Positions 1,753-53,720 of a stretch of DNA of 64,000 nt are shown here, in pieces (the first letter of the stretch is position 1; each line of letters starts with the position of its first letter). Source of the stretch: an uncultured Chthonomonadaceae bacterium (GTDB lineage: Bacteria > Armatimonadota > Chthonomonadetes > Chthonomonadales > Chthonomonadaceae); contig CAWIEK010000050.1 of assembly GCA_963835065.1 (NCBI GenBank), positions 65,842 through 129,841 on the forward strand, written 5' to 3'. The position numbers and the translations under genes were made by a program. The notes under the pieces were generated by a model, which saw only the letters and a program-made list of their open reading frames with translations, was not told where the DNA came from and searched no databases.

Positions 1753-4191
1753 TCAGGCCGCTTGTGGAAGGTCGCTTGGCTCTTCTTGGCTTGCTTTCCG
1801 AGGGCTGCCGGTGTCTTCGGAAGCGGCTATTGTCCATTGCGGCTGTTGTAGGAGGGCATCGAACGCAAGTCCGGGGATTGGTTTGGCGAAGAGATACCCC
1901 TGCCCGAAATCACAGCCCAGGGCCTGCAATTGCGCAAGTTGCTCGGAACTTTCGATGCCCTCGCCCGTGACGTTGAGGTTCATGGCGCGGCACAGCGTAA
2001 TGATGGCTTCCACAATGGCACAGGGCTGCGCGCCCCGGCCCATGACACTTACAAAGGCGCGATCAATTTTTACATTGTCAACGGGCAGCCGCTGCAAATA
2101 CGACAGCGACGAGTACCCCGTGCCGAAATCATCTACGGAAAGTAGGACGCCTAACGCTTTGAGCGCGTTCAGGCGGACAATGGCGGCGTCTATATCTTCC
2201 ATCATCACGCTTTCGGTGATTTCGAGTTTCAAACTGGACGGGGGCAGGCCGGATTCGCGCAGCGTTTCCGCCACGACGCGGCATAAATCCTCGTTTTGCA
2301 GCTGCCGCCCCGAAATGTTGACGCTTATCATAAAGGCTTGGCTTGCGGGATGGTGTTCCTGCCATATTTTCGCCTGTTGACAGGCTTGTGAGAGCACCCA
2401 CGCGCCGAGGGGAACAATCAACCCGGTTTCTTCCGCAATGGGAATGAATTTGGCGGGCGACACAAGCCCGCGCGTGGGATGCTGCCAGCGGGCGAGAGCT
2501 TCGGCTCCGTTGATGACGCCGTTATCCAGGTCTATGATGGGCTGGTAGTAGACGCGAAACTCTTCGTTTTCCAGCGCGTGACGGAGGTCGGCTTCTATCT
2601 CCACGCGCTCGACAACGCGCTCATTCATGGCGCTGTCAAAAACGGCGTAACTGCCCTTGCCGTTGAGTTTGGCCTGGTACATGGCCGTGTCCGCGTCGCG
2701 CAGAACGGTTTCCGTCCACGCGCATTCCCAATGGCTGACGGCGATGCCGATGCTGCCGGTAATGAAAACCTCGCGGGACGCAAGCGGAATAGGAACGCGC
2801 AGACGCTCCAGAATAGCCTCGGCAATGGGCGTTACTTCTTCCGCGCCGGTAACATTTTCCAGCAGAATCGTGAACTCGTCCCCGCCCATGCGCGCAACCG
2901 TGTCTCCCGAACGCGCGCACTCCTGCAAACATTGGGCGACACTGACCAGCAGTTCGTCGCCGGCTTCATGGCCGAGGCTGTCATTGATAAACTTGAAATT
3001 GTCCAGGTCTATGAACATGATGGCGACGGAACTCTGCAACTGTCGGGCGCGGGCGAGGGCTTGTTCGAGGCGGTCGTTGAACAGGGCGCGATTGGGCAGG
3101 CCGCAAAGTCCGTCGTAGTACGCCTGATGGGTGATTTGCTCTTCCAGTTGCTTGCGCTCGGAAATGTCTTTCATGAAGCAGTAGTTGCCCTCATACGCGC
3201 CCGCCGCATCATAAATCGGGTACAAGACAACGTGTTTGTGAAAGACAAAGCCGTCTTCGCGCAGCCCCTGGGCTTCGACTTCGATCTTGCCCTGCCGCCG
3301 CATCTCGCGGAAGGCTTGTTCCATCTTGGACACATCGCCGTACCAGACGCTGCGCTTCCAGTTCATGCCGATGAGGGCTTCCGGCGCGCAGCCGAGCATT
3401 TCGGCATAAGCCGCGTTGACAGAAAGATAACATCCCTGCGCATCTAACTGCGCAATGCCGTCCACAACATTTTCCAGAATGGAATTTGTCGCGCGCAGGG
3501 AAGCCGTTCGCGCTTCCACAAGGCTTTCCAGATCAAGCTTCTGCCGCTCCATACGCGCGTCCCGTTCGCAAACGTCCGCCATTTCTTTGTGGCTCGACAG
3601 GCAGGAGAGGACGAGAAAAATGTCTTCAAAGACAACCCAACCCGCGTGTTCCAGCCAGCGCCAGTGTTCGGGCGCGGCGATGCCGTAAATGGACTGCGGC
3701 CACCACAGGCCGCGCAAAATATGATCCAGGGCGGTGACAACCGTTCCCGTCAGGATCACGCGCCAATCGCGGTAAAAAGCGAGAAACGCCAGCGAGCCGA
3801 AAACGTGAAAGTGAGTTTCGATGCGCCCGCCGCACAGATGAATGAGCAGCGCGGACATCAGCAGTTGTCCCACCGCGACAACGTGGCGAGTCAGCGCCGC
3901 GCCGGAATGAAACAAGCACAGGCATACCGGCGGCAGGGTAATAAGACCGCCCAGGAGAATGGCAGCCCAGACATGAAGATGGGTTTGGCTGGTGGTTCCG
4001 CTCCACGTCCGCGGCGACAGCCAGAAAGCGGCGCAAATGCCGGCAAGCCATTGAAATAGCATCAAGCCGGCAAACACGCGGTCAATACGGCGGTAGAGTT
4101 GAAGTTCGTGTTTCTGGAGCAGCGTCGCGGCGTGCCGGATAACATCGGGGAACGGTTCGCTCCCGGCAAACGCATGGGTTGTCATCAGCAA
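1753..4191 (-). CDS. Membrane-anchored PAS-GGDEF-EAL signalling protein (diguanylate cyclase/phosphodiesterase)
   Basis: 812-aa intact ORF with N-terminal multi-TM region and a PAS-like segment. Motifs RMGGDEFTIL (GGDEF), EALARW and DDFGTGYSSLSYL (EAL). Confidence 0.9.
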   Translation of the reverse strand: MLMTTHAFAGSEPFPDVIRHAATLLQKHELQLYRRIDRVFAGLMLFQWLAGICAAFWLSPRTWSGTTSQTHLHVWAAILLGGLITLPPVCLCLFHSGAALTRHVVAVGQLLMSALLIHLCGGRIETHFHVFGSLAFLAFYRDWRVILTGTVVTALDHILRGLWWPQSIYGIAAPEHWRWLEHAGWVVFEDIFLVLSCLSSHKEMADVCERDARMERQKLDLESLVEARTASLRATNSILENVVDGIAQLDAQGCYLSVNAAYAEMLGCAPEALIGMNWKRSVWYGDVSKMEQAFREMRRQGKIEVEAQGLREDGFVFHKHVVLYPIYDAAGAYEGNYCFMKDISERKQLEEQITHQAYYDGLCGLPNRALFNDRLEQALARARQLQSSVAIMFIDLDNFKFINDSLGHEAGDELLVSVAQCLQECARSGDTVARMGGDEFTILLENVTGAEEVTPIAEAILERLRVPIPLASREVFITGSIGIAVSHWECAWTETVLRDADTAMYQAKLNGKGSYAVFDSAMNERVVERVEIEADLRHALENEEFRVYYQPIIDLDNGVINGAEALARWQHPTRGLVSPAKFIPIAEETGLIVPLGAWVLSQACQQAKIWQEHHPASQAFMISVNISGRQLQNEDLCRVVAETLRESGLPPSSLKLEITESVMMEDIDAAIVRLNALKALGVLLSVDDFGTGYSSLSYLQRLPVDNVKIDRAFVSVMGRGAQPCAIVEAIITLCRAMNLNVTGEGIESSEQLAQLQALGCDFGQGYLFAKPIPGLAFDALLQQPQWTIAASEDTGSPRKASQEEPSDLPQAA

Positions 4192-4428
4192 TTTCTCAGA
4201 GAGTTTCTTTGGAGATTAAGCGAACACCGGCAGGAAGGCCGCAGCCAATCAGCAGTGTCACTTCATAATGAATTATCGGCATGAGAAGCGCTTCCCTTCA
4301 TGCCTCCAACAGACTTAAACAAGGAAATATTTATTAAAATCGGAGGAAAGATGCTTGTGTCAAGAAAAAGCCATGAACGCATTGAGGAAAGACGTTCGTG
4401 CTATACTAATTCAGGAGGGAGTGTACCA

Positions 4429-5827
4429 ATGATTACTTCACTGCGAATAGCAAACTTCAAAGCATGGAAAGATACCGGCGAGTTTCGCCTTGCCCCGATT
4501 ACGGGCTTTTTCGGCACGAACAGTTCCGGCAAAACCAGTATTCTGCAGTTTCTTCTCATGCTAAAGCAAACTGTTGAGTCTCCTGACAGACAGGAAGTTC
4601 TTAACTTTGGAAACTATCAGGAACCGCTTGTTTCGTTAGGAAGCTTTAAAAATGTGGTCTTTCGGACAGCCAACGGTGATACAGCGCAACCTACTATTAC
4701 CGAGCAGCCACTCAAACGCGAATTGCTTGACATCGAATGGAGTTTGTCGTGGGAATTGGGCGGTACACAGGTACTGGATGAAAATACAGAAATTGATGCG
4801 CTTCGTTTTGGGGCTTCTGTTGGCGAGTTGAGGCAGAGTATCGGTATGGAAGTAGGCGCGAAAAAATTTGAGTACCAATACTGCAACCTTGAAATCCGGC
4901 AGCAGCGAAAGCGTAGGTATGCAATACATGGATGATTCCAAGTACCAGTTGATTGTCAATGATCAGCCCATCAGGGATAATCAGGCTAATAATACAAGAT
5001 TTCGTCGGCCCGTGAAATGCTATGGTTTCCCGCCGCAAGTCGCTGCTGACAACCAACAAATTTCATACCTTGATACTCTGGAACTGTACTTTACGCTATT
5101 GTTTAACGATATGTATTATCTGGGGCCATTGCGGGATGCGCCTCAGCGCGAGTACCGGCGGACGGGTACAACCGTTTCAGACGTAGGCAAGCGCGGGGAA
5201 AGAACAATAGACGCTTTGCTGGCTTCAGAAGGAACCGGCTCACAACATCGAACCGCGCGAACACTGGAAGGGCAAGTTGCTTACTGGCTGCGCCAACTGG
5301 GGCTGATTGAAGATTTTCGGGTAAAGCCAATCTCCCAATCAAGCGGCTTGTATGGTGTTGAAGTACGTAAGACAGCAGACTCTCCGTATGTCTTTCTCCC
5401 GGATGTAGGCTTCGGCGTCTCGCAGGTGCTGCCTGTAATCGCTTTGTGCTACTATGCGCCGATGGGTTCTATCCTCCTTCTCGAACAACCCGAACTGCAT
5501 TTGCATCCCGCCGTGCAATCGGGCCTTGCAGACATGTTGATTGCAGCCGCGAAAGAACGGCATCTGCAAATCATTCTGGAGAGTCACAGCGAACATTTGC
5601 TGGCGCGACTGCAGCGCCGCGTCGCTGAAGAAGCCATCCCGCGTGACGACGTACAACTCTACTTTTGTAAACGCGAGGCGGCTGCGGCACATTTGGAGCC
5701 ATTACAGATGAACAACTTCGGCTTCATTACGAACTGGCCTAAAAACTTTTTTGGCGATGAATTGGAGGAAAGGTCGGCAATGATGCTTGCCGCTCTTGCT
5801 CGCCGCGAAAAAGGAGAGGCCGAGTGA
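4429..5827 (+). CDS. ABC/OLD/RecF-like AAA ATPase (AAA_15/21-type, DUF3696-like C-terminus), interrupted by a +1 frame change between 4856 and 4935
   Basis: AGGAGG lies 10 nt before ATG 4429. Walker A FFGTNSSGKTS, YLGPLR motif, Walker B/D-loop ILLLEQPELHLHP, H-loop ILESHSEHLL. The N- and C-terminal halves lie in track ORFs 4300..4935 and 4868..5827. Confidence 0.75.
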
Positions 5828-6333
5828 CAGGAACCGGAGTTGTTACAGATACCAACGTGCTTCTTACGGCCAACGGAAACAACGAGAAGGCTGCTCTGAG
5901 TTGCGTTCGAATTTGTGTCCTGACACTTCTACAAATACAATCCGGCAGCATGGGGTTTGTAGTAGTTGACAATGGATTTCGTATTGTCAGTGAGTACAAC
6001 AACAAACTGACTCCCTATACCGGGCAATTGCCCGGTGACGTGTTTCTAACATGGTTGTTGACCAACTTGTACGACCCTACTGTTTGTGAGAGGGTAGAGA
6101 TAGTACAGAATCATCAGAGCAATGATCCCAATGACTTCATAGAGTTTCCTGCCGATCCCGCGCTGGCAAAATTTGACGCTTCCGATAGAAAATTCATTGC
6201 CGTTGCGCTCACCAGTCAATACAAACCGGATATTTTGAACGCAACCGATAGCGACTGGCGTAATTTTCTTGAAGCGTTGCAGGCAAATGGCATAACCGTA
6301 AGATTTCTATGCCCGGAAAGCATGCCAACGTAA
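5824..6333 (+). CDS. PIN-like domain protein (putative nuclease), translationally coupled to the ATPase
   Basis: GTG start overlaps the ATPase stop (GTGA). Acidic PIN-like signature: VVTDTNVLL, FDASDRKFIAVAL, LNATDSDW. Confidence 0.6.
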   Translation: MTGTGVVTDTNVLLTANGNNEKAALSCVRICVLTLLQIQSGSMGFVVVDNGFRIVSEYNNKLTPYTGQLPGDVFLTWLLTNLYDPTVCERVEIVQNHQSNDPNDFIEFPADPALAKFDASDRKFIAVALTSQYKPDILNATDSDWRNFLEALQANGITVRFLCPESMPT

Positions 6334-6358
6334 GAATCAGTCACAATCGGAATAATGT

Positions 6359-7458
6359 TTACTTCGCTCGGAGGGCTTCGCGGGCATAGTCGGCAAGTTC
6401 ATGGGCGCGGTGGGCGGCGGTGTGATGGGCGAGTACGCGCTGGCGGGCGCGTTCCGCAATCGCAGCGCGTTCGGGTTCGGGCAGATTGCGGAGGAAGCGC
6501 AGGGTCTCTTCGGGGGAGCGCGAAACGAGTATTTCCAGGTTGGGAACGAAAAACGTGTCCAGCCCTTCCCAATAGTCGCTGAGGATGGGAACGCCGCAGG
6601 CGGCAGCCTCGAAAAGACGGACGCTTGGCGAGTACCCGGCGCGTATCATGTCGGCGCGGGTGATGTTGAGCGTAAACCGCTGCGAAGTGTAGAATGCCCG
6701 ATGTTCGGCAGGCGGCAGGTGTTCAATGCGCGCGACATTCGCCGGCCAGGCAATGGAAGCGGGATATTGCGGCCCGGCAACCACGAAACGGCCTTCCGAC
6801 CATGCGCGCGCCGGTTCAAGGAGCAATTTTTCGAGCGGCGGCTGACGGTCATCGCTGTACGTTCCCATGTAGCCCAAATCATAATCATAAGCGCTGCGGT
6901 TCGCGTCCGGGAAGTACAAATCGGGGTCAACCGAGCAATACAACGGGCGGGCGGCAGGAGAACCGTACTGCTGTTCCAATCGCGTCAGTGTTGGCCCGCC
7001 CGAAAACGACAGATAGACATTGTAGCGGGGAATCAGTTGCGGGCGTAAGGTACTCGTAATCGCCCCGTTCCAATTTGGACAGCGTAACGGGCGTATCAAT
7101 GTCGTAAAAAGCCGTCGCTGTATGCGCCGTTTGCGTGACCCATTCGCCCACCAAAACGCCTTCGGGCACATACGAGCCGACAATGACAAAATCCGCGTCT
7201 GCGGACGGCGTCGGTAAAGCGGTCGCGCAGTTCTTCGAGGGAGCCATACAGTTCCGTACGTCCGAACGGAGGCGCGGGCATATCGCGATTGGAAGCGTAC
7301 CAGGGCACATCCCGCTCCAAAAACAACACGTCATGCCCCTGCGCGCACAGTTCGCGCGCAAGCCCGCGATACGTGGTCGCGTGTCCATTCCCCCACGAAC
7401 TGGTAATGGACAGGCCAAGAATGACGATATTCAGGCGGTCAGGGGTTGCCAACGTCAT
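6359..7458 (-). pseudogene. CgeB-like glycosyltransferase (DUF3880 / Glyco_trans_1_2 type), two frame changes
   Basis: The sensible peptide runs through three frames: 7458-~7200 (MTLATPDRLNIVILGLSITSSWGNGHATTYRGL), ~7200-7040 (ADADFVIVGSYVPEG...) and 7040-6359 (...VRLFEAAACGVPILSDYWEGL...). It is a paralog of the next gene. Confidence 0.7.
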
Positions 7459-8646
7459 GCGCTCCCTCCTGCCTCAAATGCGGCATTTCCTTCTGAACTC
7501 GCTTCAGCATTTGCTTCGGCGCCTGTTTCCAAATCGGGTTTTCGGCTGGATTGTCCGGGTGCAGACATGAAATGCGCGTCAAGCAAACTTTCCAACTGAA
7601 CGACGCGCTGCGCGTAGGTATGCTGCGCCAGCGCGCGCCGATACGCCGCCTGCCCGATTTCCTGCGCGCGCTCCGGCGTTAAGTCTGCCAGATGCCGCGC
7701 CACTTCCTCGCCCCCCTGCGCCACCAGTATCTCTTTTCCCGGCTCGAAAAATTCTTCGATGCCCTGCCAGTAATCCGTAATCAGACACGCGCCCGCGCCC
7801 GCCGCCTCAAAAACGCGCGTGGCGGGCGAAAACCCGTAACGCGCCATGCTGTCGCGGCTGATGTTCAGCACGGCGCGGGGCGTACAGTTGAAAGAATTGT
7901 GGTCGGGCGTATAAACGTGTCCGGCATAGCGGACATTCGGCGGCATGGCCTTGTCGCCCCACCCACTGCCGCCAAGCAGAAACTGTTTATCGGGCAGCAA
8001 ATGCGCGGCGTGAAGGAAGAACTGCTCCACGCGGGCTTCCCTGTCCGGCAGGCGATTGCCCAAAAATCCCAAATCGGCGGCAAAGCGCGGGTCGGGCGCA
8101 ACGGGATGGTGCGTATCCGGGTCAAGCGCGTTATAAATGGGAACGCACTGCCGCGCGCCCAATTCTTCATAAGCGCGAACAACCGGATTTCCGCCGCCAT
8201 ACGTCAATATCAAATCATAGCGGGGAATCAAAGCGCGAAACGCATCGGATGGATTGGAATGAACCCGCTCCAATGTGGCGGGCGCGTCCACATCCCAAAA
8301 GGCGACGATGGACTCCCGCCTTCTTCACGTCCAGCACCCGCGCTTCCAGCAGTTCATCGAACACGCCCACGCCGCTCGCTTTGACAATCAAATCGGCATC
8401 GCGCGCCTGCTCCAACGCCCTATTTACGCCGTCTTCTCCTTCGCCCGCGTACACGACAACTCGCGCCCAATCCGGGTCTTCCATATCGCGGTGCTGCTGC
8501 CGCTCGTAAGCGTCGGGTTCGTAAAACGTGACGCTATGCCCGCGCCCGTGCAGCGCGCGTATAATGCCCCGATAGTAGGTTGCGGCTCCATTCCAGTACG
8601 CCGACACCAGGCTGGAACCGAAAAAAGCGATGTTCAAACCGTTCAC
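7455..8646 (-). pseudogene. CgeB-like glycosyltransferase, one frame change near 8290-8310
   Basis: N-terminus MNGLNIAFFGSSLVSAYWNGAATYYRGI (ORF 8215..8646) continues as ...FWDVDAPATLERV...VFEAAGAGACLITDYWQGI in ORF 7455..8291. The stop overlaps the next start by 4 nt. Confidence 0.7.
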
Positions 8647-8680
8647 AGGCTTCCTCTTAAACGCGCGAATACGATCTCAC

Positions 8681-8821: not shown

Positions 8822-11461
8822 TCAGGCGATTTCCTCGTATATATTGAGTAACTCGTCTACTCTGTGGGCGCAGGTGTGGCGGGACAGGATGGTTTGCAGG
8901 CCATGCCGCGCCAGGGCGTCTGCTTTGTCCGGGTTTTCAAGCAGGGTTTGCAGGTGGCGCTGCATTTCCTGTCCATTCTGCGCGACAAGATAATCCTCGC
9001 CCGGCGTGAATAGATGCTCCGCATCGTTCCAGGGCGAGCAAACGAGAGGAATCCCACACGCCAATGCCTCGAACACCCGAATTGTCGGGATACCCGGCAG
9101 GAAACGCACATACGGCCCGCGCGGAATATGGACCGTGACGCGATATTGGGCGAACACGTCCGGGGCTTCGTGGTTGGGCAATCCGCCCCCGTATTCAATG
9201 CCCGCTTCCGCCAGCGCGCGAAACGCATGTTCCGGGTAGCGCACCCCGTAAACCCGCGCCCGCACTCCCAACGCCTTCACCGGCTCCAAGAGAAACTCAT
9301 GCAGTTCCGCTGTCCGCTCCTCATCGCCCCAATTGCCGATCCAGACCAAATCCCCACTCAGGGAGCAGGGAACAGGGAACAGGGAACAGGAGGCTATTGG
9401 CTGTGCTGAACTTGCTTGAGAAAAAGAAGTATTTGTATTCTGTTCCCTGTTCCCTGTTCCCTGCTCCCTTGCCGGCTTGAACACCCGCGCGTCCGCCGCC
9501 TCGTGCCAGGTCCAGGCGCGGCGCGTCCAGCCTTCCGTCAGATACAAGTCGCGGATGATGCTGCCGAAGGCGAGAACGCCGTCGTAGCCGCTCAGGTCGT
9601 AGGAGGCCATGCCCGCGCGATCCGTAACCGAGCGGTGGTGCGTGTCGTGGAACAGCAGGCGGTAGTGCGGGTTTGCCTGCCGGTGCTGTCCCAGGCGTTT
9701 CACAAGCGCGTGGTCGTTCCATTCATGCACGATTACCAGGCTTGCGTTTGCCAATACTTTATCAAGACGCAACAGGGCAGGCTCGTAGAAGATACTGTCT
9801 AAAGTCGGATAGGCGCGGTAAAAATCTTCCACGCCACTCGCGCCGCGATCCGCCAGCAGGTTTTGCAGGCTCCAGTTCTGGCACGGCTCATAAACAACGA
9901 CATCCAGGCCGCGCGCCTGCAATTCCGTCACAATGCCGCGCAGGAAATGGGCGTTGCCGTGATTCCAATCCGAGAGCAGGGAATGGCAGAAGATAACGAT
10001 TTGTCCGGGAACACTCACGGCAGCGATTCCTCCGGTTCGGGCGGAAAGGACAGGGCCGCGCTGTAGTGGGGAACCGCGGGCATGGGTGGTCAGCAGTTGC
10101 CCGTAAATATCCAGATAGCCGTCCGTCATGGCATCCAGCGTGTACAACTGTGCCCGTTCCCACGCCCGATTCGCCATTTCCTGCCGCAAATCAGGCTCGG
10201 CAATCAATTTCGACAAAGCGCGCCGCAAAGCGTCGGCATCATTGGGCGCAACGAACAGCGCTGCTTCGCCCCACACTTCCCGCAGACTGCCAATATCTCC
10301 CAATACCAGCGCGCAACCCGACAGCGCGGCTTCCAGCGCCGACAACCCGAACGGCTCATACCGCGCCGGAAGCGCATAAATCGCCGCCCGCGCATACCAG
10401 CCTGATAAGGCTTCGGGCGACAGCGCGCCGAGAAAGGATAAGGATGAAGGACCAGTTGATAGTTGATAGTTGATAGTTGATAGGGCATCCGTTGGTTCTG
10501 TCTTCTGTCTTCTGTCTTCTGTCTTCTCTCCTCCTGTTCCCTGTTCCCTGTTCCCTGTTCCCTTCTCCGCCGGATGCTGCGGACTGCCGGCGACATAGAC
10601 GGGCCAGGTGAGATGGGGGGCGGCTTGTTCCAGCAGGACGATGTTTTTGGCTTCATCCCAGGCGCGGCCTGCCGTGAGGATAAACGGTTCCTTTTCCGCG
10701 CTGTAGTATAGGGAATGTTGCCTGCCGTTCGGGATTACTTTCGCCTCGCAGAAAGACGGAGAAAGCAGAAAGGAGGAGTCCTCCTGCCCTTTGCCTTTTG
10801 CCTTTTGCCTTTTGCCTTCCTCAAGGCTGTAATGGTAGTCAAGCGCGCGCAGCATGGCGGAGGTGGGCGCGATTACGCAGTCGGCGGAGTGCAGGCCGAT
10901 GGTAATATGTTCGCGGTATTGGTTCCATTCCGGGGGCGCGGGTTCGCCCTTCACGGCCTGCCACCAGGAGAGAACGTCGGAGTGGGCGACAACAACCACA
11001 GGCGCGGCCCAGGGCAGAGCGGCATGGGCATAGCCGTTGAGGTGAACGATGTCCGGCGCATACTGTTCTTCCAATGCCAGCAGCCATTCGCCTGCCCGCG
11101 CCACATCCGCCCAACACTCGTGCATCCATTCCAGTTTGGCATTGCTGGAACACAGCGTCAGGCCGGGAATTTGCCGCGCCTGCATGGATTGCTGCGGGGA
11201 AGGCAAATCGCCCATTGTCGCCAGAACAACCTCAACGTCATGGGCGGACAAACCGCGCGCCAGGTCAAGCGCATACGTCCACACGCCGCCCACGCAGTCC
11301 GCCGTCATCAGGATACGACGAGGGTGGATATGCGCCCGTTCGCTGACCAGGCTGTGCGGCTGAACGCGGCGTTGGAGCGCGCGCCCGGTGCGGCCTGTGG
11401 GTGTGCCGTTGGCTCCGGCTTCGGGCAGATGCTGCCGGGTTCGGGAGAAAGAGTGTCTCAC
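8822..11461 (-). CDS. Bifunctional glycosyltransferase: N-terminal GT4/GT1-like domain fused to a CgeB-like domain
   Basis: 879-aa intact ORF. GTG start overlaps the upstream stop (GTGA). N-terminus RILMTADCVGGVWTYALDLA. The C-terminal half (VIFCHSLLSDWNHGNAHFLRG ... VFEALACGIPLVCSPWNDAE) parallels the two CgeB-like genes downstream. Confidence 0.85.
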   Translation of the reverse strand: MRHSFSRTRQHLPEAGANGTPTGRTGRALQRRVQPHSLVSERAHIHPRRILMTADCVGGVWTYALDLARGLSAHDVEVVLATMGDLPSPQQSMQARQIPGLTLCSSNAKLEWMHECWADVARAGEWLLALEEQYAPDIVHLNGYAHAALPWAAPVVVVAHSDVLSWWQAVKGEPAPPEWNQYREHITIGLHSADCVIAPTSAMLRALDYHYSLEEGKRQKAKGKGQEDSSFLLSPSFCEAKVIPNGRQHSLYYSAEKEPFILTAGRAWDEAKNIVLLEQAAPHLTWPVYVAGSPQHPAEKGTGNREQGTGGEKTEDRRQKTEPTDALSTINYQLSTGPSSLSFLGALSPEALSGWYARAAIYALPARYEPFGLSALEAALSGCALVLGDIGSLREVWGEAALFVAPNDADALRRALSKLIAEPDLRQEMANRAWERAQLYTLDAMTDGYLDIYGQLLTTHARGSPLQRGPVLSARTGGIAAVSVPGQIVIFCHSLLSDWNHGNAHFLRGIVTELQARGLDVVVYEPCQNWSLQNLLADRGASGVEDFYRAYPTLDSIFYEPALLRLDKVLANASLVIVHEWNDHALVKRLGQHRQANPHYRLLFHDTHHRSVTDRAGMASYDLSGYDGVLAFGSIIRDLYLTEGWTRRAWTWHEAADARVFKPAREQGTGNREQNTNTSFSQASSAQPIASCSLFPVPCSLSGDLVWIGNWGDEERTAELHEFLLEPVKALGVRARVYGVRYPEHAFRALAEAGIEYGGGLPNHEAPDVFAQYRVTVHIPRGPYVRFLPGIPTIRVFEALACGIPLVCSPWNDAEHLFTPGEDYLVAQNGQEMQRHLQTLLENPDKADALARHGLQTILSRHTCAHRVDELLNIYEEIA
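9361..9468. repeat. Heptamer hairpin cassette inside the GT CDS: (GGGAACA)n 9361-9390, spacer, (TGTTCCC)n 9440-9468
   Basis: 108 nt (36 codons), translated as [38 protein letters not shown]. Confidence 0.85.
10454..10562. repeat. Three adjacent heptamer arrays inside the GT CDS: (ATAGTTG)n 10454-10483, (TTCTGTC)n 10496-10529, (TGTTCCC)n 10534-10562
   Basis: Read directly. Translated on the minus strand as [36 protein letters not shown]. Confidence 0.85.
10788..10820. repeat. (TTTGCCT)x4 heptamer array inside the GT CDS
   Basis: cctttgccttttgccttttgccttttgccttcc; translated as KRQKAKGKGQ. Confidence 0.8.
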
Positions 11462-33783: not shown

Positions 33784-33903
33784 CTCCATGCTTCACAAGA
33801 CGAATACATTTGCAGCAGAATTGCCAGGCTGTGCCTTGACACAATGCCTGTGTATATTGTATGCTGATAGAAGTGTCACCAAAGAGGGAAGACGCCGCGC
33901 CGC

Positions 33904-34735
33904 ATGAACGACTCGAATTTACAAGAAGTTTCCGTTTCGTCCTCAACCCTCCCTGCCGACAACGCTATCATTGATAATGTGGATAAAGCTGTTCCTGTGG
34001 ATACTGCGGATGATGCCTCACCCCTTCCGTCCGTTCAGGTTTCCCTGCTGCAGGGCGCGCAAGCGTTTGGATTGGTTCTGGACAGCGCAGCCCTGGCCCG
34101 TTTTGCGCGCTTTGCTTTGCTTCTGGAAGAGGGAAACCGCCAACTCAACCTGACGCGCATACGCCCGGAAGATGTAGTCACGCTGCATTTTCTGGATTCG
34201 CTGGCGCTGGCAGTGGCGCATCGGCCCGCATCGGGAGCGCGCGTACTCGATGTCGGCACGGGCGCGGGGTTTCCCGGAGTGCCGCTCGCCCTCGCGTTTC
34301 CTGATGTCACCGTCACTCTGATGGACAGTACGCGCAAGCGTCTCCTATGGCTCGACAGCGCGCTTTCCGAATTAGCGATTTTGAACGCCCATACGCTTCA
34401 CGCCCGCGCCGAAGAACTGGCGCGCGACCTGCAGCGCCGATGAGCGTTATGATCTTGTTGTCGCCCGCGCCGTCGCGCCTCTGGCAACGCTTGCCGGCTG
34501 GCTGTTGCCGTTCGCGCGTCCGGGCGGGCTTGCCGTCGCGTACAAAAGCCAGGACATTGCCGCCGAACTTGAGGCCGCGCTGCCCGTTCTGCAAGCGCAT
34601 TCCGCGACCCTGGAGCAAATCGTGGAAGTGCCCTTACCCGGCACGGACATTGCGCGTAAACTGGTGCTGATGCGCAAACACCGCGCCGTTCCCCTGCCGC
34701 AAAGACGTAACAGGGGTCAATTTAGCCGCAAATAG
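33904..34735 (+). pseudogene. rsmG: 16S rRNA (guanine527-N7)-methyltransferase RsmG, one frame change near 34430-34445
   Basis: NLTRIR...HFLDSL...VLDVGTGAGFPGVPLA in ORF 33904..34443, continuing as YDLVVARAVAPLATLAGWLLPFARPGG... in ORF frame 34505..34735. Confidence 0.75.
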
Positions 34736-40990: not shown

Positions 40991-41110
40991 AGTTGAAGTT
41001 GATAGTTGATAGTTGATAGTTGATCATGCGCGGCTTCTCTTTGTCTCAGCATGACAGTAGAGACAGGAGTACAGCGCCTATCAACTATCAACTATCAACT
41101 ATCAACTTCT
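40991..41110. repeat. Heptamer hairpin: (AGTTGAT)n 40991-41024 / (CTATCAA)n 41079-41110, spacer ~54 nt, between two minus-strand genes
   Basis: The arms are reverse complements. The right arm overlaps the last codons of the upstream gene (..EEVDS). Confidence 0.85.
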
Positions 41111-42082
41111 TCCACCTTCCCCGTCCGCATCGAGCGCAGGGTCGCATCCAGAACGCGCTGCTGTTGGACAGCGTCGTCTACGCCATAATCCGGCAGCGTG
41201 TTGTCGAGGATACACTGGGAAAGATGTTCAAATTCCAGTGTCCATTGGTTGACGGCGGGGAACGTTTCGCGCTCGTGCCGGCCTTCAATTTCGATATGCA
41301 GTTCGCCCACTTCGCCCGGCAGAAAAGCGTTGGGCGCGACAAGCCGACCTTTGGTTCCCACAATCTCATACTCGTTGCGGTACGGCAGGGCAAAGCCCGT
41401 ATCGAATAGGACGCGGGCATGGGGAAATTCCAGAACGCCGCTTGCCAGCATGTCTACACGATACTCCGGGTCGAAATCCGCAAGGGCAAAGATTCGCGTG
41501 GGTTCGGCGTCCAGCAGGAACCGGGCGGCGCACAGGCAGTAACAGCCCACGTCCATCATGCCGCCACCCGCAAGCTGCGGGTCGAGGCGTACATTATTTT
41601 GCCGGGCAAGCATGAACGTGAAAGCCGTTCGTATCAGCTTCACGTCGCCCAATATGCCGTTTCCGAACCAATTCACGGGCGCGGCGGTGCATGGGATGAA
41701 AGCGCCACATGAACGCTTCCATGATTTTGACACCATGCTGCCGAGCCGCGTTCGCAACTTCCAGCGCTTCTTCGACATTGGCCGCAAACGGCTTTTCCAC
41801 AATGCTGTGCTTGCCCGCCTGGGCGCATTTGATCGCCCATTCGGGATGCAGGCCGTTGGGAAGCGGATTGTACACGGCTTCGATATTGGGGTCCGCCAGC
41901 ATTTCTTCGTAGGAGTCATAAGCGCGGGGGATGCCGAATTCCTCCGCAAACGCCTGCGATTTGGACAGGGTTCGACTTGCAATGCCGGCCAATTCCACGT
42001 TTTGCGCTTTCAGCATGGCGGGAATGGCCGTGCTGCGCGCAAACGCGGCGCATCCCAACACGCCCCACTTCACTTTTTGCAT
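41095..42082 (-). pseudogene. Gfo/Idh/MocA family oxidoreductase, one frame change near 41650
   Basis: GGAGG RBS. MQKVKWGVLGCAAFARSTAIPA...EKPFA (ORF 41594..42178) continues as GNGILGDVKLIRTAFTF... in ORF 41095..41982. Confidence 0.75.
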
Positions 42083-42194
42083 CCATTGGCCTCCAAAAAC
42101 AATATCCGGGTGTATCGGCGTAAAAGCCGGACTGCTTTCACGCAGGCCGGCTTTTACATTTTCAACAAATTTCAACAAGAGTATTGCGCGAAAA

Positions 42195-43301
42195 TCATTG
42201 GCGGATGAGTTCGCTTGGCCCGATGTGGCGCAGCTTCTTCAGGGCGCGCAGTTCGATCTGGCGGACGCGCTCGCGGGTGACGTGCAGGCGAACGCCCACT
42301 TCTTCCAGCGTCCGGGCATAACCGTCGTCGAGGCCGAAGCGCATACGCAGCACTTCTTTTTCGCGCCCGGTCAGTTTGTTCAGCACTTCTTCGATTTGTT
42401 CGCGGCGAATGAGATTGAGGGTCGCTTCGGACGGGCTGACGGCGGTGTGGGACTGAATGAAGTCGGAAAGCTGGCTGTTGTCTTTTTCGCCGACGGGCGT
42501 TTCCAGTGACAACGGTTCGAGCGCGATACGCATGATTTCGTTGACGCGATCTACCGACACTTCCAGTTCGCGGGCGATCTCTTCTACGGTGGGGTCGCGC
42601 AGCAATTGCTGGCGCAACCGGCCCGACGCCTTGACGAGTTTATGGATGATCTCGGCGACGTACACGGGGATGCGGATGGTGCGGCCCTGATTGATGATGG
42701 CGCGGGCGATAGCGCGGCGGATCCACCAGGTTGCGTAGGTGCTGAAGCGGTAGCCTTTGCTCGGGTCAAACTTCTCAACCGCGCGAATCAGGCCGATGTT
42801 GCCTTCCTGAATCAGATCGGGAAGCGGAATGCCGCGCACACTGTACTTCTTGGCGATGCTGACGACAAGGCGGAGGTTGGCTTCCGTAAGTTTGTCTTTG
42901 GCGTACTTGTCGCCTTTTTGGACGCGACGCGCCAGATCAATCTCTTCGCGGGCCGTCAGCAGTTGCGCGCCGCGCGCCCGACTCATCCAGATTTGGAGGC
43001 TTTCGTCATTGCGGGGGCTGTCGCTGTCCGTGGCAAGCAGGCTGCTCACGGTGTCGCGGCTCATGCGTTCGGAAGCGCGGGTTTCCAGGTCGGCAGGGGT
43101 CGGAGCGGCGGGGGCAACAGCAAACACAGGCTCATTTTGGGGCATGCTGCTGTCATAAAGGTGCAGCAGGTCATCGTTAGGTTCCTGCTCGAAGCCGTCT
43201 TCGGCATCGTCTTCGGGCAGTTCGGACAGGGAACGGGGTTCAAAGCGGGTTTCAGCAGCGAGGCGCTGCGGGCGATCCAGTATTGCGGGATTGTTACTCA
43301 T
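42195..43301 (-). CDS. rpoD: RNA polymerase sigma-70 factor, group 1/2 (RpoD/SigA-like)
   Basis: Region 2 [37 protein letters not shown] and region 4 [28 protein letters not shown]. Confidence 0.9.
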
Positions 43302-50538: not shown

Positions 50539-50916
50539 TTGACCACACCAACCACCTTTGGGGAGTACATCAAGGAGCTGCGTCTCGAACAGCGTGTCTC
50601 GCTGCGCGCGTTTGCCGAGTCTATCGGCTCCGATCCCGGCAATTACAGCAAAATTGAACGGGGAAAGATGGCTCCTCCTGCCGATGCTGCGAAGCTGGAC
50701 ATCTATCGCAAAGCGTTGTGCCTTGATGCCAATGATTTGCGGTGGCGTGAAGCGGTGCGTCTTGCTTCCATTCATCGCGGCGAAGTGCCGCCTCGCATAC
50801 TTAATGATGAACAGTTGGTAGGCAAACTGCCCGCGCTGTTCCGCACACTGGAAGGAGATGCCGTTGATGAAACCTTGCTCGATGAGCTAATCGCCACTAT
50901 ACGAAGGGAGTATTAG
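50539..50916 (+). CDS. XRE-family helix-turn-helix transcriptional regulator
   Basis: TTG 50539 lies 7 nt after GAGGAG. Peptide FGEYIKELRLEQRVSLRAFAESIGSDPGNYSKIERGK (HTH_3-like). Confidence 0.8.
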   Translation: MTTPTTFGEYIKELRLEQRVSLRAFAESIGSDPGNYSKIERGKMAPPADAAKLDIYRKALCLDANDLRWREAVRLASIHRGEVPPRILNDEQLVGKLPALFRTLEGDAVDETLLDELIATIRREY

Positions 50917-50921
50917 ATTGC

Positions 50922-51515
50922 GTGAACATACCATTTCTTCCAGATGAAATGCTTGAAGAACAGGCTGAAGCCTTTCTTGCCAAGTATCTGCCTCAGAGGG
51001 TTATTCCCATTCCAATTGAGGAGATACTGGAAACGGATTTCCGCGTCGGAGTTGTGCCTATTCCGGGTTTCAGCGACCGTTTCGGCGTTGTTGGTTACCT
51101 CAGTACGGATCAGCAGGATTTGATGATTGATGAAAAAGTCATGACGCGGTATCCTGCCCGGTATCGTTTTACCATCGCGCATGAATTGGCGCACCTGCTT
51201 CTGCACGGCGACTACATACGGGAAAATTGCCCGGCTAACATTGCCGACTGGAAACGCTGGCTGATCGCAAGGGACGCCAAACTGTACACGCGCATGGAAA
51301 CGCAAGCCAATCGCATGGCCGGTATGCTGCTGGTTCCACGCGCTGAATTAGCGGAAGCATGGGAGCGGGCGCAACAGTACGCCGAAGAGCGTGGCATTGA
51401 TACTACCGAGTTGGATCAGTTTGGGGTCGCGCATCTGGCGGAATGGATTGCCCGTGAATTTGAGGTGTCCGGCAAAGTCGTGGAAATCGCGCTTGAACGC
51501 TGCAAACTGGTGTAG
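50922..51515 (+). CDS. ImmA/IrrE family metallopeptidase (DUF955)
   Basis: HEXXH motif in FTIAHELAHLLLHGDY with downstream E..AN..A segment (METQANRMAGMLLVPR), typical of ImmA/IrrE. Confidence 0.85.
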   Translation: MNIPFLPDEMLEEQAEAFLAKYLPQRVIPIPIEEILETDFRVGVVPIPGFSDRFGVVGYLSTDQQDLMIDEKVMTRYPARYRFTIAHELAHLLLHGDYIRENCPANIADWKRWLIARDAKLYTRMETQANRMAGMLLVPRAELAEAWERAQQYAEERGIDTTELDQFGVAHLAEWIAREFEVSGKVVEIALERCKLV

Positions 51516-51747
51516 CTCAAGCAAATGGCAGGCTGAATGTCTGTTTTACATAGTAACTCTGGAAGAAAAGCAAAAAGCGACAGGTTGCAACCCGTCGCTC
51601 CAGCCGCCTTCCAACGTCCTGAATGGGCGTCAGTCTGCAATGACCTCACAACCCATTGTAACATACGACGCCCTATACCGCAAGAACGAAATAGCGTTTA
51701 ACATGAGTATACTCTGGCCTATGTGATTATTTGGGGAGGATGCTGAT

Positions 51748-52257
51748 ATGTCCGATCAACTTACAATTCCCTCAACGCAAAATAAACTTTCTTCCAATTA
51801 CAAGCATCCCGTTGTAAAAGAACTTGCTCTTCTGCTTACAAACGCAAGTTTGCAAGCAGTTCCTTTAGTCGGTTCGCCTATAGCTGCGCTTATATTTGGC
51901 GGTATCTCTCTTGCTAAAGAACGACGGGCACAGGCCTACTTGGAAGAGTTGGAACAAAATCTGCATGAACTTGGCGAAGATACCATTTCACGTGAGGAGT
52001 TCACACATTTATTTACAATCACAGCCCGTGCAGCCTTAAACACACAACAAGAAGAAAAAATACGACGCTTCGCCCAGTTATTTGCGAGTTTCGCAAATGG
52101 GAGCAATTTTGATCGTATTAGCGAGTATGAAGAGGCCGCACAGATTGTAACTGAATTGTCTGAACGGGAATTTCAAGTTCTCTTGATACTTGATTTGCAC
52201 GAACGTACTGCACCCATTGATGCGCCTCCCGAACTGCGACGAACTTCAAAATCTTAA
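51748..52257 (+). CDS. Hypothetical protein, cassette cargo 1
   Basis: Strong RBS GGGGAGGA 8 nt upstream. Hydrophobic segment AVPLVGSPIAALIFGGISLA followed by helical/coiled region; no family recognised. Confidence 0.55.
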   Translation: MSDQLTIPSTQNKLSSNYKHPVVKELALLLTNASLQAVPLVGSPIAALIFGGISLAKERRAQAYLEELEQNLHELGEDTISREEFTHLFTITARAALNTQQEEKIRRFAQLFASFANGSNFDRISEYEEAAQIVTELSEREFQVLLILDLHERTAPIDAPPELRRTSKS

Positions 52258-52261
52258 TGGC

Positions 52262-52648
52262 ATGTTCTGGGTACCCTTTCTTGATATGGTAGAGCAGGAG
52301 ACGGGTATACCACTTTCTGAAATTCCGGGCGTACTTGAGCGGTTACGCCGTAGCGGGCTATACCAAACTTGGCCGAATAGTCAGGGCGGAGGATTTCTTC
52401 ACAAGGGCATTGTCATTGATCATGATTTAGGACATCTAACGGCTAATTTTGACGTTTTGATGCATCTACTCCAGCACGAAACTACAAACCTGAAAGATAA
52501 CCCAATAAATGGTACATCTCACCTAACAGAACCTGCACAGCGTGTGGATGACGTCTACTTTCGTATCTCTTCTAACTACACAGAAGAGGAGGCAGAAAGA
52601 ATTTTACAAAGCATTGACGATAATACAGGATATATCTTTGTTGGATAG
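52262..52648 (+). CDS. Hypothetical protein, cassette cargo 2 (possibly fused to cargo 1)
   Basis: ATG lies 5 nt after the upstream TAA, no RBS. GIPLSEIPGVLERLRRSGLYQ is reminiscent of a winged-helix. The same frame is open back to 52190. Confidence 0.45.
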   Translation: MFWVPFLDMVEQETGIPLSEIPGVLERLRRSGLYQTWPNSQGGGFLHKGIVIDHDLGHLTANFDVLMHLLQHETTNLKDNPINGTSHLTEPAQRVDDVYFRISSNYTEEEAERILQSIDDNTGYIFVG

Positions 52649-52802
52649 ATAAAGAGGTCTCCTGATATGCACATGGGCAGCCCACGTGATCCATACAGAT
52701 ACACAGTAAATACTACACTCGCGCACTCTGCACAAACTATCGCAGATCGTTTGAGCAAGTTTCCAGAAATTGATGTAGTATCCTTCAATAAAAACATTTG
52801 TA

Positions 52803-53441
52803 CTAAAAGTAGAACTCTACGTCGCGGCCCAACGTCTGCTGCATCTGGCGCAGGGTTTGCGCGGCATTGGCCTGCGCCTGCTGACAGATGCCGCTTTTCT
52901 CTGCCGCTTCCCGAAACTGCTGCGAGGCTTTTTCCTGCGCTTTGGGCACGATGTTGTCGTCGTGCCACACCAGACCCGGATCGCTCTGCTCCACGCGCAC
53001 CCGGACGTTCGGCGGATAAATCGTAACGGGCGGCAAATGGACGCGCCAGACGGTTTTGCCGTCCACGTTCTTGGTCGCGGTCACATCTTTGGCGGACAGG
53101 GTTGACAGGTCTACGCCCGCTTCCACCGTGCCTTCGGCCACGACAAGCGCCTGATTGCGGGTCGCCCAATGCACCACGTTCGACACGCCCGGCATGTTCC
53201 CGATCATGCCTTCCGGTTCCACCTGCGTTTCCTGCCGCACGATGTCTTTCATCTTGAACGACGCGGAATGAAGCTGTCCGATTTTCTGCATGGCGAGAAC
53301 AACCGGCCCCATTTCGGGCGGCAGGTCACGCCGATGCGCCTGCCCGATGTTCCACAGCCAGGTTCCCGCCAGCCACACGCCCACAAACGCGCCGATGATG
53401 CGCCACGCCCATCTGCGCGGCCTGCCTGTCGTTCTTGCCAT
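52803..53441 (-). CDS. Membrane-anchored hypothetical protein (DUF4230-like)
   Basis: N-terminal anchor WAWRIIGAFVGVWLAGTWLW. Overall pattern (..EAGVDLS..) resembles DUF4230; family call is tentative. Confidence 0.55.
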   Translation of the reverse strand: MARTTGRPRRWAWRIIGAFVGVWLAGTWLWNIGQAHRRDLPPEMGPVVLAMQKIGQLHSASFKMKDIVRQETQVEPEGMIGNMPGVSNVVHWATRNQALVVAEGTVEAGVDLSTLSAKDVTATKNVDGKTVWRVHLPPVTIYPPNVRVRVEQSDPGLVWHDDNIVPKAQEKASQQFREAAEKSGICQQAQANAAQTLRQMQQTLGRDVEFYF

Positions 53442-53464
53442 GTCAAAAAACCTCTTTTCAGAAT

Positions 53465-53720
53465 GTCGGTGTTAGGTATTCGGTATTCGGTGTTCGGGCA
53501 CTTGTCAGTGTCAGCCGGTTCCGCGCCGAAAATTGGTTCGGAAGCGATCACAAGTCGTTGTGAGCGGTATGTCTGTACCAGACAGAGATACCTGATTTAT
53601 TCTTATTGTATCTTATATAGGACGACTTCGCAGAGAGTTTCATTCTTTTCTTTTGCGCTTCGCGGCTATACCTCCCTGTAACCATCGAACCATCAAAATC
53701 CCGAACACCGAATACCGACA
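53465..53720. repeat. Heptamer inverted pair (GGTGTTA/GGTATTC-type 53465-53498; CGAACAC/CGAATAC-type 53700-53720) with ~200-nt spacer
   Basis: The arms are partial reverse complements; located between two minus-strand genes. Confidence 0.7.

Follow-up and report, generated by a model that had tools for sequence, protein, structure and literature searches.

The window considered here, a stretch of 64,000 nucleotides from contig CAWIEK010000050.1 of an uncultured Chthonomonadaceae bacterium, carries two adjacent plus-strand genes, the first for an ATPase and the second for a small protein with a predicted PIN fold, which together form a member of HEC-03, an anti-phage system that has already been named and catalogued. 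An earlier note on this DNA had described the pair as a candidate defence module that could not be assigned to a named system, and this claim to novelty fails since both proteins match the HEC-03 models of PADLOC-DB. The locus is very probably a stand-alone copy of the system, presumably acquired horizontally, in which an ABC ATPase with a DUF3696 tail is translationally coupled to a small, predicted PIN nuclease. In itself the copy is of little importance, being one more, probably mis-assembled, member of a system that has experimental support at the level of a preprint. The family to which it belongs is widespread, for its PIN proteins fall into some 1,700 clusters and were found in many phyla, in no fewer than 462 genomes taken at species level. 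The locus also illustrates how an indel of a single nucleotide can conceal a two-gene defence system from automatic annotation.

HEC-03, which stands for Hma-embedded candidate 03, consists of an ATPase and a PIN-domain protein and was described as a cassette inserted among Hma (helicase-methylase-ATPase) genes (Payne et al., bioRxiv 10.1101/2024.01.29.577857). When a representative was carried in E. coli with its native promoter, the plaquing of at least two coliphages fell by orders of magnitude, protection required both genes (Fig. S3 of the preprint), and the HEC-03 strains were left without isopropyl β-D-1-thiogalactopyranoside (IPTG) owing to apparent toxicity. The tested pair, WP_025259138.1 and WP_025259137.1, comes from Pseudomonas cichorii ATCC 10857 (Table S2 of the preprint), and its two genes overlap, lying at 322707-324092 and 324079-324552. 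The ATPase is described as being of the ABC type and the PIN protein as VapC-like, and the preprint gives no mechanism or mode of phage sensing (bioRxiv 10.1101/2024.01.29.577857); a search of one literature library found no later mechanistic paper on HEC-03. The naming of the two subunits is swapped between sources, for HEC-03A is the ATPase and HEC-03B the PIN protein in the paper, whereas PADLOC-DB gives its ATPase model (458 positions) the name HEC-03B and its PIN model (159 positions) the name HEC-03A.

Assignment to HEC-03 and the two proteins

The assignment is carried by the two HEC-03 models of PADLOC-DB v2, PDLC04148 for the ATPase (458 positions) and PDLC04147 for the PIN protein (159 positions). 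The ATPase gene of the window is split between two reading frames, and PDLC04148 is the top match for both parts, covering profile positions 1-84 in the N-terminal part (E = 1.5e-26) and 169-453 in the C-terminal part (E = 2.8e-103, 344 bits), and leaving the variable Insert 1 (profile positions of about 85-168) uncovered. The next ATPase models are PDC-M55A (1.6e-48) and NsnB of the Menshen system (2.1e-45), with AriA, GajA, PtuA, AbiLi and Old far weaker. The second gene has a single match in PADLOC, to PDLC04147 (7.9e-30, profile positions 3-154). Compared directly with the tested P. cichorii pair, the ATPase is 38% identical (E = 9e-94, over the first 399 residues of the reference) and the PIN protein 36% identical (E = 5e-25).

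The ATPase gene starts at the ATG at position 4429, as in its homologues, of which 62 begin MITxL..NFKSW with an invariant first methionine. Because the homologues use this start, positions 4300-4428 are an open reading frame (ORF) extension that lies outside the gene. The N-terminal part (4429..4908, plus strand, frame 1) contains the Walker A motif GTNSSGKTS and a beta-rich Insert 1, matches AAA_15 and AAA_23 of Pfam, and its frame runs to a stop at 4933-4935. The C-terminal part (4910..5827, plus strand, frame 2) ends with the TGA at 5825-5827 and contains YLGPLR, the signature-like DVGFGVSQ, Walker B (LLLEQPELHLHP) and the H-loop ESHSEH, followed by the DUF3696 tail NWPKNFFGDE and then a terminal helix. 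Over the gene as a whole Pfam recognises AAA_15, AAA_21 and DUF3696 (the last at 2.4e-9), and NCBIfam gives nothing significant for the gene pair. An alignment of 62 ATPase homologues has 97 invariant columns, and the window copy retains every one of them.

The ATPase in its frame-repaired form (465 amino acids) was modelled with AlphaFold2 (AF2) at a predicted local distance difference test score (pLDDT) of 83.5 and a predicted template modelling score (pTM) of 0.87. Foldseek places this model closest to the SMC head (1.4e-11) and Rad50 heads, and then to PtuA of Septu and of a retron (9nnb and 8eea), OLD and GajA, so the protein is predicted to have an ABC-type fold with an SMC/Rad50/PtuA-like head and not an AAA+ fold. 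When the PDB is searched with the ATPase sequence alone the matches are to OLD and PtuA and are weak, and there appears to be no close relative of the HEC-03 ATPase with a solved structure.

The PIN gene (5824..6333, plus strand) begins with GTG and encodes 169 amino acids, with a candidate active site of D9, E57, D121 (together with D118) and D142. Neither Pfam, its PIN models included, nor NCBIfam gives a match at E <= 1, and the protein is identified by PADLOC and structure prediction only. The AF2 model, built from a 37-sequence alignment (pLDDT 95.2, pTM 0.90), has an alternating beta/alpha topology. Its best Foldseek matches in the PDB are all PIN proteins, namely Rrp44, AF1683, SMG6, PAE0151, PH0500, VapC (7vwo, query-normalised TM score 0.51) and PRORP/HARP, and the top match among the viral models of BFVD is likewise a PIN protein. 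The Foldseek probabilities are 0.8-1.0, with E values of 2.4e-3 or above and TM scores of 0.4-0.5, which are weak. Judged on the model, the protein is best described as a divergent PIN fold. The acidic residues occupy positions canonical for PIN proteins, with D9 directly after beta1, E57 in the helix after beta2, D121 and D118 after beta3 and D142 after beta4, and among 116 family members D9 is kept in 113, E57 in 115, D118 in 113, D121 in all 116 and D142 in 115.

The family also has features that are not typical of VapC proteins. C27, C31 and C163 are near-invariant (112-114 of the 116 members) and C88 is found in 96, and an insert at residues 92-118 precedes D118 and D121. The nuclease might be gated by a metal or redox site made up of C27, C31 and C163, a suggestion that applies to the family and is not specific to the window copy.

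A role for the PIN-fold protein as a non-catalytic adaptor or sensor, leaving the ATPase or a host factor to carry out defence, is very unlikely. Such a role would fit the weakness of the structural matches to catalytic PIN proteins, the atypical cysteines and insert, the glutamate that replaces aspartate at the first acidic position of the tested P. cichorii protein, and the precedent of Menshen, where inactive PIN-like domains serve as docking modules. Yet four acidic residues stand at canonical PIN positions in 113-116 of the 116 members, with D121 invariant, and the pair encodes no other effector domain.

The two genes are joined by a GTGA stop/start overlap (5824..5827, plus strand), in which the TGA of the first gene (5825-5827) overlies the GTG of the second (5824-5826), which implies that the translation of the two is coupled. 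A Shine-Dalgarno-like element, AAGGAGAGG (5811..5819, plus strand), lies within the 3' end of the ATPase gene, 4-7 nucleotides before the GTG, and the ATPase gene itself is preceded by the Shine-Dalgarno sequence AGGAGG (4413..4418, plus strand), 10 nucleotides before its ATG; all three elements were read directly from the sequence. Much of what the earlier note had seen here is upheld. The two co-directional genes and their overlap are as it described, the motifs that it quoted (FFGTNSSGKTS, YLGPLR, ILLLEQPELHLHP, ILESHSEHLL, VVTDTNVLL, FDASDRKFIAVAL and LNATDSDW) are all present in the translations, and its recognition of an ABC-type ATPase and a PIN-like protein agrees with the Pfam and Foldseek results for the first and with the fold and conserved acidic residues of the second. 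Its outline of the first gene has to be corrected, as it ran from 4300 as one gene where the start is 4429 and two frames are used, and the frameshift was merely hinted at by the term 'frame-repaired'. Its suggestion that the module has its own expression signals holds for AGGAGG and is unsupported for a promoter at TGcTATACT (4399..4407, plus strand). The letters of this extended -10-like element are present and are unverified as a promoter; no -35 element lies at the proper spacing, a promoter scan did not list the site, and the region contains 4 promoter-like sites compared with 2.5 +/- 1.7 in shuffled sequences. The promoter and terminator scan as a whole gave nothing above the shuffles.

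The frameshift in the ATPase gene

The first of the two frames runs from 4429 to the stop at 4935 and the second is open from 4868 to its stop at 5827. In a tblastn comparison with the region, six full-length homologues follow frame 1 over their residues 1 to about 156, as far as base 4908, and from base 4910 onwards the remainder follows frame 2. The lesion is thus one surplus base within the interval 4882..4910 (plus strand), with the tblastn switch of frame falling between 4908 and 4910. The simplest repair, as judged from the alignment, would be to shorten the AAA run at 4908-4910 by one A to give ..EIRQQR-SVGMQYMDD.., which yields an intact ORF of 465 amino acids. The repaired junction equals that of the sequence P0041 in length and matches it (P0041: ..YYNQPRTVGMQHLD..; in a shorter stretch, ..NQPRTVGMQHLD..). 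Public gene calls contain a 299-amino-acid C-terminal fragment of the ATPase only (P0039), together with the 169-amino-acid product of the PIN gene (P0001), and neither is named. A programmed frameshift was considered and ruled out, given that nearly all homologues in 79 related loci are single-frame.

At least five further frameshifts interrupt conserved genes in the same window, roughly one for every 10 kb. The glycosyltransferase-like gene that follows the pair on the minus strand (7458->6359) is spread over three frames and so contains two shifts, and in a paralogous minus-strand gene next to it the GT4 N-terminal domain (8218-8676) and the Glyco_trans_1_2 domain (7458-8324) lie in differing frames. 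Further away, the housekeeping gene rsmG/GidB (plus strand, 33871-34735) matches its profile over positions 4-110 in 33871-34440 and over positions 112-176 in 34385-34732, and the two domains of a Gfo/Idh/MocA oxidoreductase gene (minus strand, 41098-42238) are likewise separated, the N-terminal one lying in 41597-42238 and the C-terminal one in 41098-41982. This pattern suggests an assembly that is prone to indels or else a genome that is rich in pseudogenes. Because the other lesions fall in conserved genes, housekeeping rsmG included, the shift in the ATPase gene is probably an assembly indel rather than the mark of a true pseudogene. No decay beyond the single extra base is seen, and the near-invariant residues of the PIN protein are all intact too.

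The opposing explanation, in which the frameshift is biological and the locus is a pseudogenised HEC-03 remnant that is inactive in this genome, is a serious possibility though the less probable one. In such a cell at most a fragment of the ATPase of 299-319 amino acids, lacking Walker A, would be made alongside the PIN protein. The public gene calls show the shift just as the window does, with the 299-residue product standing alone on record, and defence genes are frequently lost. The toxicity of HEC-03 on over-expression would favour inactivation, and the two adjoining glycosyltransferase genes are broken as well, which makes local decay conceivable. Against this, the lesion is single and one nucleotide long, all 97 invariant ATPase columns and the near-invariant PIN residues have been kept, and distant, unrelated genes are frameshifted also (rsmG at about 34.4 kb and the Gfo/Idh/MocA gene at about 41.6-42.0 kb), which speaks for an assembly prone to indels. 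Left without its partner, an intact PIN protein might, moreover, harm the cell. A functional HEC-03 system needs two intact genes, and in the sequence as given the ATPase is split, which bears on the function of this copy and not on homology.

Beyond the two broken glycosyltransferase genes lies a third of the same kind (8822-11461, minus strand), which encodes a protein of 879 amino acids with GT4, Glycos_transf_1 and C-terminal Glyco_trans_1_2 domains. Downstream of it, on the minus strand, are ADH-like and NAD-epimerase genes, an arrangement that suggests a polysaccharide locus.

Genomic setting and related loci

The pair is the sole content of the segment 4192-6358 and is enclosed by two minus-strand genes, a divergent PAS-GGDEF-EAL gene (1753-4191) and the convergent glycosyltransferase-like gene, whose stop is at 6359. 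Both flanks had been described in this way in the earlier note, as had the AT-richer pocket in which the pair sits, and both descriptions are confirmed. The guanine-plus-cytosine (GC) content of 4192..6358 is 0.481 compared with 0.575 for the whole window, and only 2 of 619 windows of equal size are as low. Horizontal acquisition of this segment is likely. Island borders are not detectable around it, no transfer RNA gene is present in the 64-kb window, and direct and inverted repeats around 3900-6700 are limited to short matches at the level of chance. One such inverted repeat (6307-6321 and 6375-6389; 15 nucleotides, 87% complementary, with 53 nucleotides between its arms) spans the 25-nucleotide gap that separates the convergent stops of the PIN and glycosyltransferase genes, and it could be a shared terminator-like structure or well possibly a product of chance. 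The earlier implication of a defence island is not borne out at this locus, where the flanks are signalling and glycosyltransferase genes.

Relatives of the locus were sought by a pattern scan in which each GTDB species was represented by a single genome, using a 10-sequence sub-alignment of the 37-sequence PIN alignment. This found 462 loci with a PIN relative, the best PIN match being 49%, in Chloroflexota, Cyanobacteria, Acidobacteriota, Planctomycetota, Latescibacterota, Gemmatimonadota, Proteobacteria, Bacteroidota and other phyla. The counts of synteny and overlap cover 79 of these loci. In all 79 the gene directly before the PIN gene, on the same strand, encodes an ATPase homologue, nearly always in a single frame, so the expectation that the two genes would be conserved as neighbours elsewhere is well supported. 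A stop/start overlap is available at 4 nucleotides in 55 of these loci and at 1 nucleotide in 5 more.

Among the nearest ORFs on the upstream side of related loci, 8 of 63 carry DUF1156; among those on the downstream side, 8 of 71 carry DUF499 with a Swt1-like HEPN domain. In four loci scanned with PADLOC these neighbours are HmaB and HmaC (E = 0), and about a tenth of the related loci sit between hmaB and hmaC. The neighbours of the remaining loci are varied and mostly housekeeping genes. A profile of the PIN family searched against 1.84 billion representatives matches 1,707 clusters (at 50% identity) with E <= 1e-3 and 1,270 with E <= 1e-10, and among the 150 best-scoring matches nearly all are stand-alone proteins of 155-195 amino acids. 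Two apparent ATPase-PIN fusions, P0202 and P0284, were considered as Rosetta-stone evidence and rejected as frameshift artefacts, in which arginine-rich, out-of-frame linkers replace the DUF3696 motif.

Homologous pairs are also found on 11 plasmids, of Aeromonas, Acinetobacter, Tistrella and Azotobacter, with the PIN gene annotated as 'hypothetical protein'; no phage-borne copy was found in 50,697 phage records. On the conjugative Aeromonas salmonicida plasmid NZ_CP085535.1 (locus L080, 5599-8227) a gene annotated as an 'RNA ligase family protein' follows the HEC-03-like pair by 4 nucleotides, and the three genes are set among AbiEii, Hok/Gef, recombinase and GASH genes. The presence of an RNA ligase beside a PIN nuclease hints at an RNA substrate or at a repair or immunity function. 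Elsewhere tandem DUF3696 ATPase paralogues surround one PIN gene, two in L004 (6774-9977) and four in L074 (5492-13210), which may represent diversification of the sensor.

Another reading takes the pair chiefly as a toxin-antitoxin or addiction module, with a VapC-like PIN toxin neutralised by the ATPase, that stabilises mobile DNA and is not directed at phage. This is an unlikely explanation. It can draw on the VapC-like PIN fold and the toxicity of over-induction, on the 11 plasmids and the proximity to AbiEii and Hok/Gef on the Aeromonas pAsa9-like plasmid, and on the compact, low-GC and acquired look of the segment. It is opposed by the phage experiments, where the family representative cut plaquing by orders of magnitude and both genes were needed, and by the ATPase, which is unrelated to VapB antitoxins (bioRxiv 10.1101/2024.01.29.577857) and which, at 465 amino acids and with the conserved catalytic motifs of an ABC ATPase, is untypical of an antitoxin. 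Most of the related loci are, furthermore, chromosomal or embedded in Hma. Addiction and defence are in any case not mutually exclusive roles.

The window contains a second low-GC pocket at about 50.0-53.0 kb (GC 0.476-0.50). There an HTH_3/XRE gene (50539-50916; PADLOC capH, 1.6e-5) is directly followed by a Peptidase_M78/IrrE gene (50922-51515; PADLOC capP, 1.4e-14), and then come five plus-strand ORFs (51391-51726, 51748-52257, 52190-52648, 52667-53026 and 53169-53681) that have no match in Pfam or PADLOC. A CapH/CapP-like regulator pair with cargo of this kind could be a regulated defence or mobile-element cassette.

Proposed mechanism and comparison with known systems

A clamp mechanism is proposed for HEC-03 because the closest named relative of its ATPase is NsnB of Menshen (2.1e-45). 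NsnB, too, combines an ABC ATPase with a DUF3696 tail. In AlphaFold3 (AF3) models the two tails of an NsnB dimer clamp the PIN-like N-terminal domain of NsnC, an arrangement that has been likened to PtuA-PtuB of Septu and AriA-AriB of PARIS; the PIN-like domains of Menshen have lost the D-E-D-D residues (PMC12065111). By analogy, an oligomer of the HEC-03 ATPase would hold the PIN protein through the DUF3696 tails and keep it silent, while two variable regions of the ATPase, Insert 1 and Insert 2, may sense a phage cue. Binding or hydrolysis of ATP would then release or activate the PIN nuclease, which might cut RNA in the manner of VapC and so abort the infection, probably at a cost to the growth of the host.

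Several points weigh against the picture of a functional HEC-03 copy that works by clamp and release. Nuclease activity, substrate, trigger and the contact between ATPase and PIN protein are all inferred, the preprint being silent on mechanism, and the Foldseek figures for the PIN protein are, as given above, weak. Experimental support comes from the P. cichorii representative only, which is 36-38% identical to the window copy. The frameshift is present both in the sequence as given and in the public record, so the system may be truly dead here, and the AAA run at 4908-4910 is short and hence not a classic site of homopolymer error. Finally, there is neither a defence island nor an Hma system around the window copy, which is flanked by signalling and glycosyltransferase genes.

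As the source of the proposed mechanism, Menshen is the natural first comparison. Of the proteins named from experiment, NsnB is the one nearest to the ATPase and it likewise has a DUF3696 tail, and in both systems the effector would dock through a PIN or PIN-like domain. The window ATPase also has two motifs that may correspond to features in the description of Menshen, DVGFGVSQ to a GxG variant that replaces the SGG signature and YLGPLR to the arginine found at the Q-loop position. The differences are that the window has no ParB/DUF262 sensor gene (NsnA) upstream, where the divergent GGDEF/EAL gene is found instead, and that its PIN protein is stand-alone (169 amino acids), with D-E-D-D retained and no toxin domain fused at the C-terminus. 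The families that recur in at least two of 63 upstream neighbours in the related loci do not include DUF262, and no sequence similarity was detected between the PIN protein and the NsnC models of PADLOC.

It is most improbable, then, that the pair is simply a truncated Menshen, made up of NsnB and NsnC and missing both NsnA and the C-terminal effector domain of NsnC. The ATPase does match the NsnB model of PADLOC (2.1e-45 and 9.6e-17), and it is an N-terminal PIN-like domain by which Menshen effectors dock on the DUF3696 tail. However, the HEC-03 model scores 344 bits against 154 bits for the C-terminal part of the ATPase, and the HEC-03 PIN model is the only match of the second gene. The absence of DUF262/ParB from the upstream region of the window, and its failure to appear in two or more of the 63 upstream neighbours, argue in the same direction, as do the retention in the HEC-03 PIN family of the D-E-D-D residues lost in Menshen and the almost wholly stand-alone nature of that family (1707 clusters, with proteins of 155-195 amino acids making up nearly all of the 150 best-scoring matches). 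A relationship in the opposite sense can be offered tentatively, and again for the family and not for the window copy in particular. HEC-03 might represent a minimal, ancestral-like form of the Menshen architecture, in which a PIN domain that is still active is clamped between the DUF3696 tails of a dimeric ATPase, docking module and effector being one and the same, and from which the inactive inPIN adaptors were derived by the addition of NsnA and of swappable toxin domains.

Septu (PtuA-PtuB), the retron-associated PtuAB and PARIS (AriA-AriB) share the idea of an ABC ATPase oligomer that holds and releases a small nuclease. In Septu, PARIS and Gabija, however, the effectors are HNH (PtuB) or TOPRIM (AriB, GajA) enzymes, whereas the effector in the window is a PIN protein; the PADLOC matches to PtuA, AriA and GajA are limited to the ATPase core, with E values of 1e-6 to 1e-15, and PtuA and AriA are without a DUF3696 tail. 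VapBC resembles the pair in the PIN fold and four acidic residues of the second gene and in the toxicity reported for HEC-03 over-expression, but the upstream partner is a 465-residue ABC ATPase and not a small VapB antitoxin, and the 92-118 insert and conserved cysteines set the HEC-03 PIN family apart. PDC-M55, an untested candidate in PADLOC, has an ATPase, PDC-M55A, that matches over the whole C-terminal part (1.6e-48); the score is nevertheless far below that of the HEC-03 model, and the PIN protein matches no PDC-M55 model.

The closest correspondence is thus with HEC-03 itself. The window copy differs in lying outside Hma, in its frameshifted ATPase and in having aspartate at the first acidic position of the PIN protein, where the tested protein has glutamate. 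The two agree in having a DUF3696 ABC ATPase placed directly before an overlapping PIN gene of about 160 codons, in folds that correspond, in relatives that lie between hmaB and hmaC, and in nearly full coverage of both hidden Markov models.

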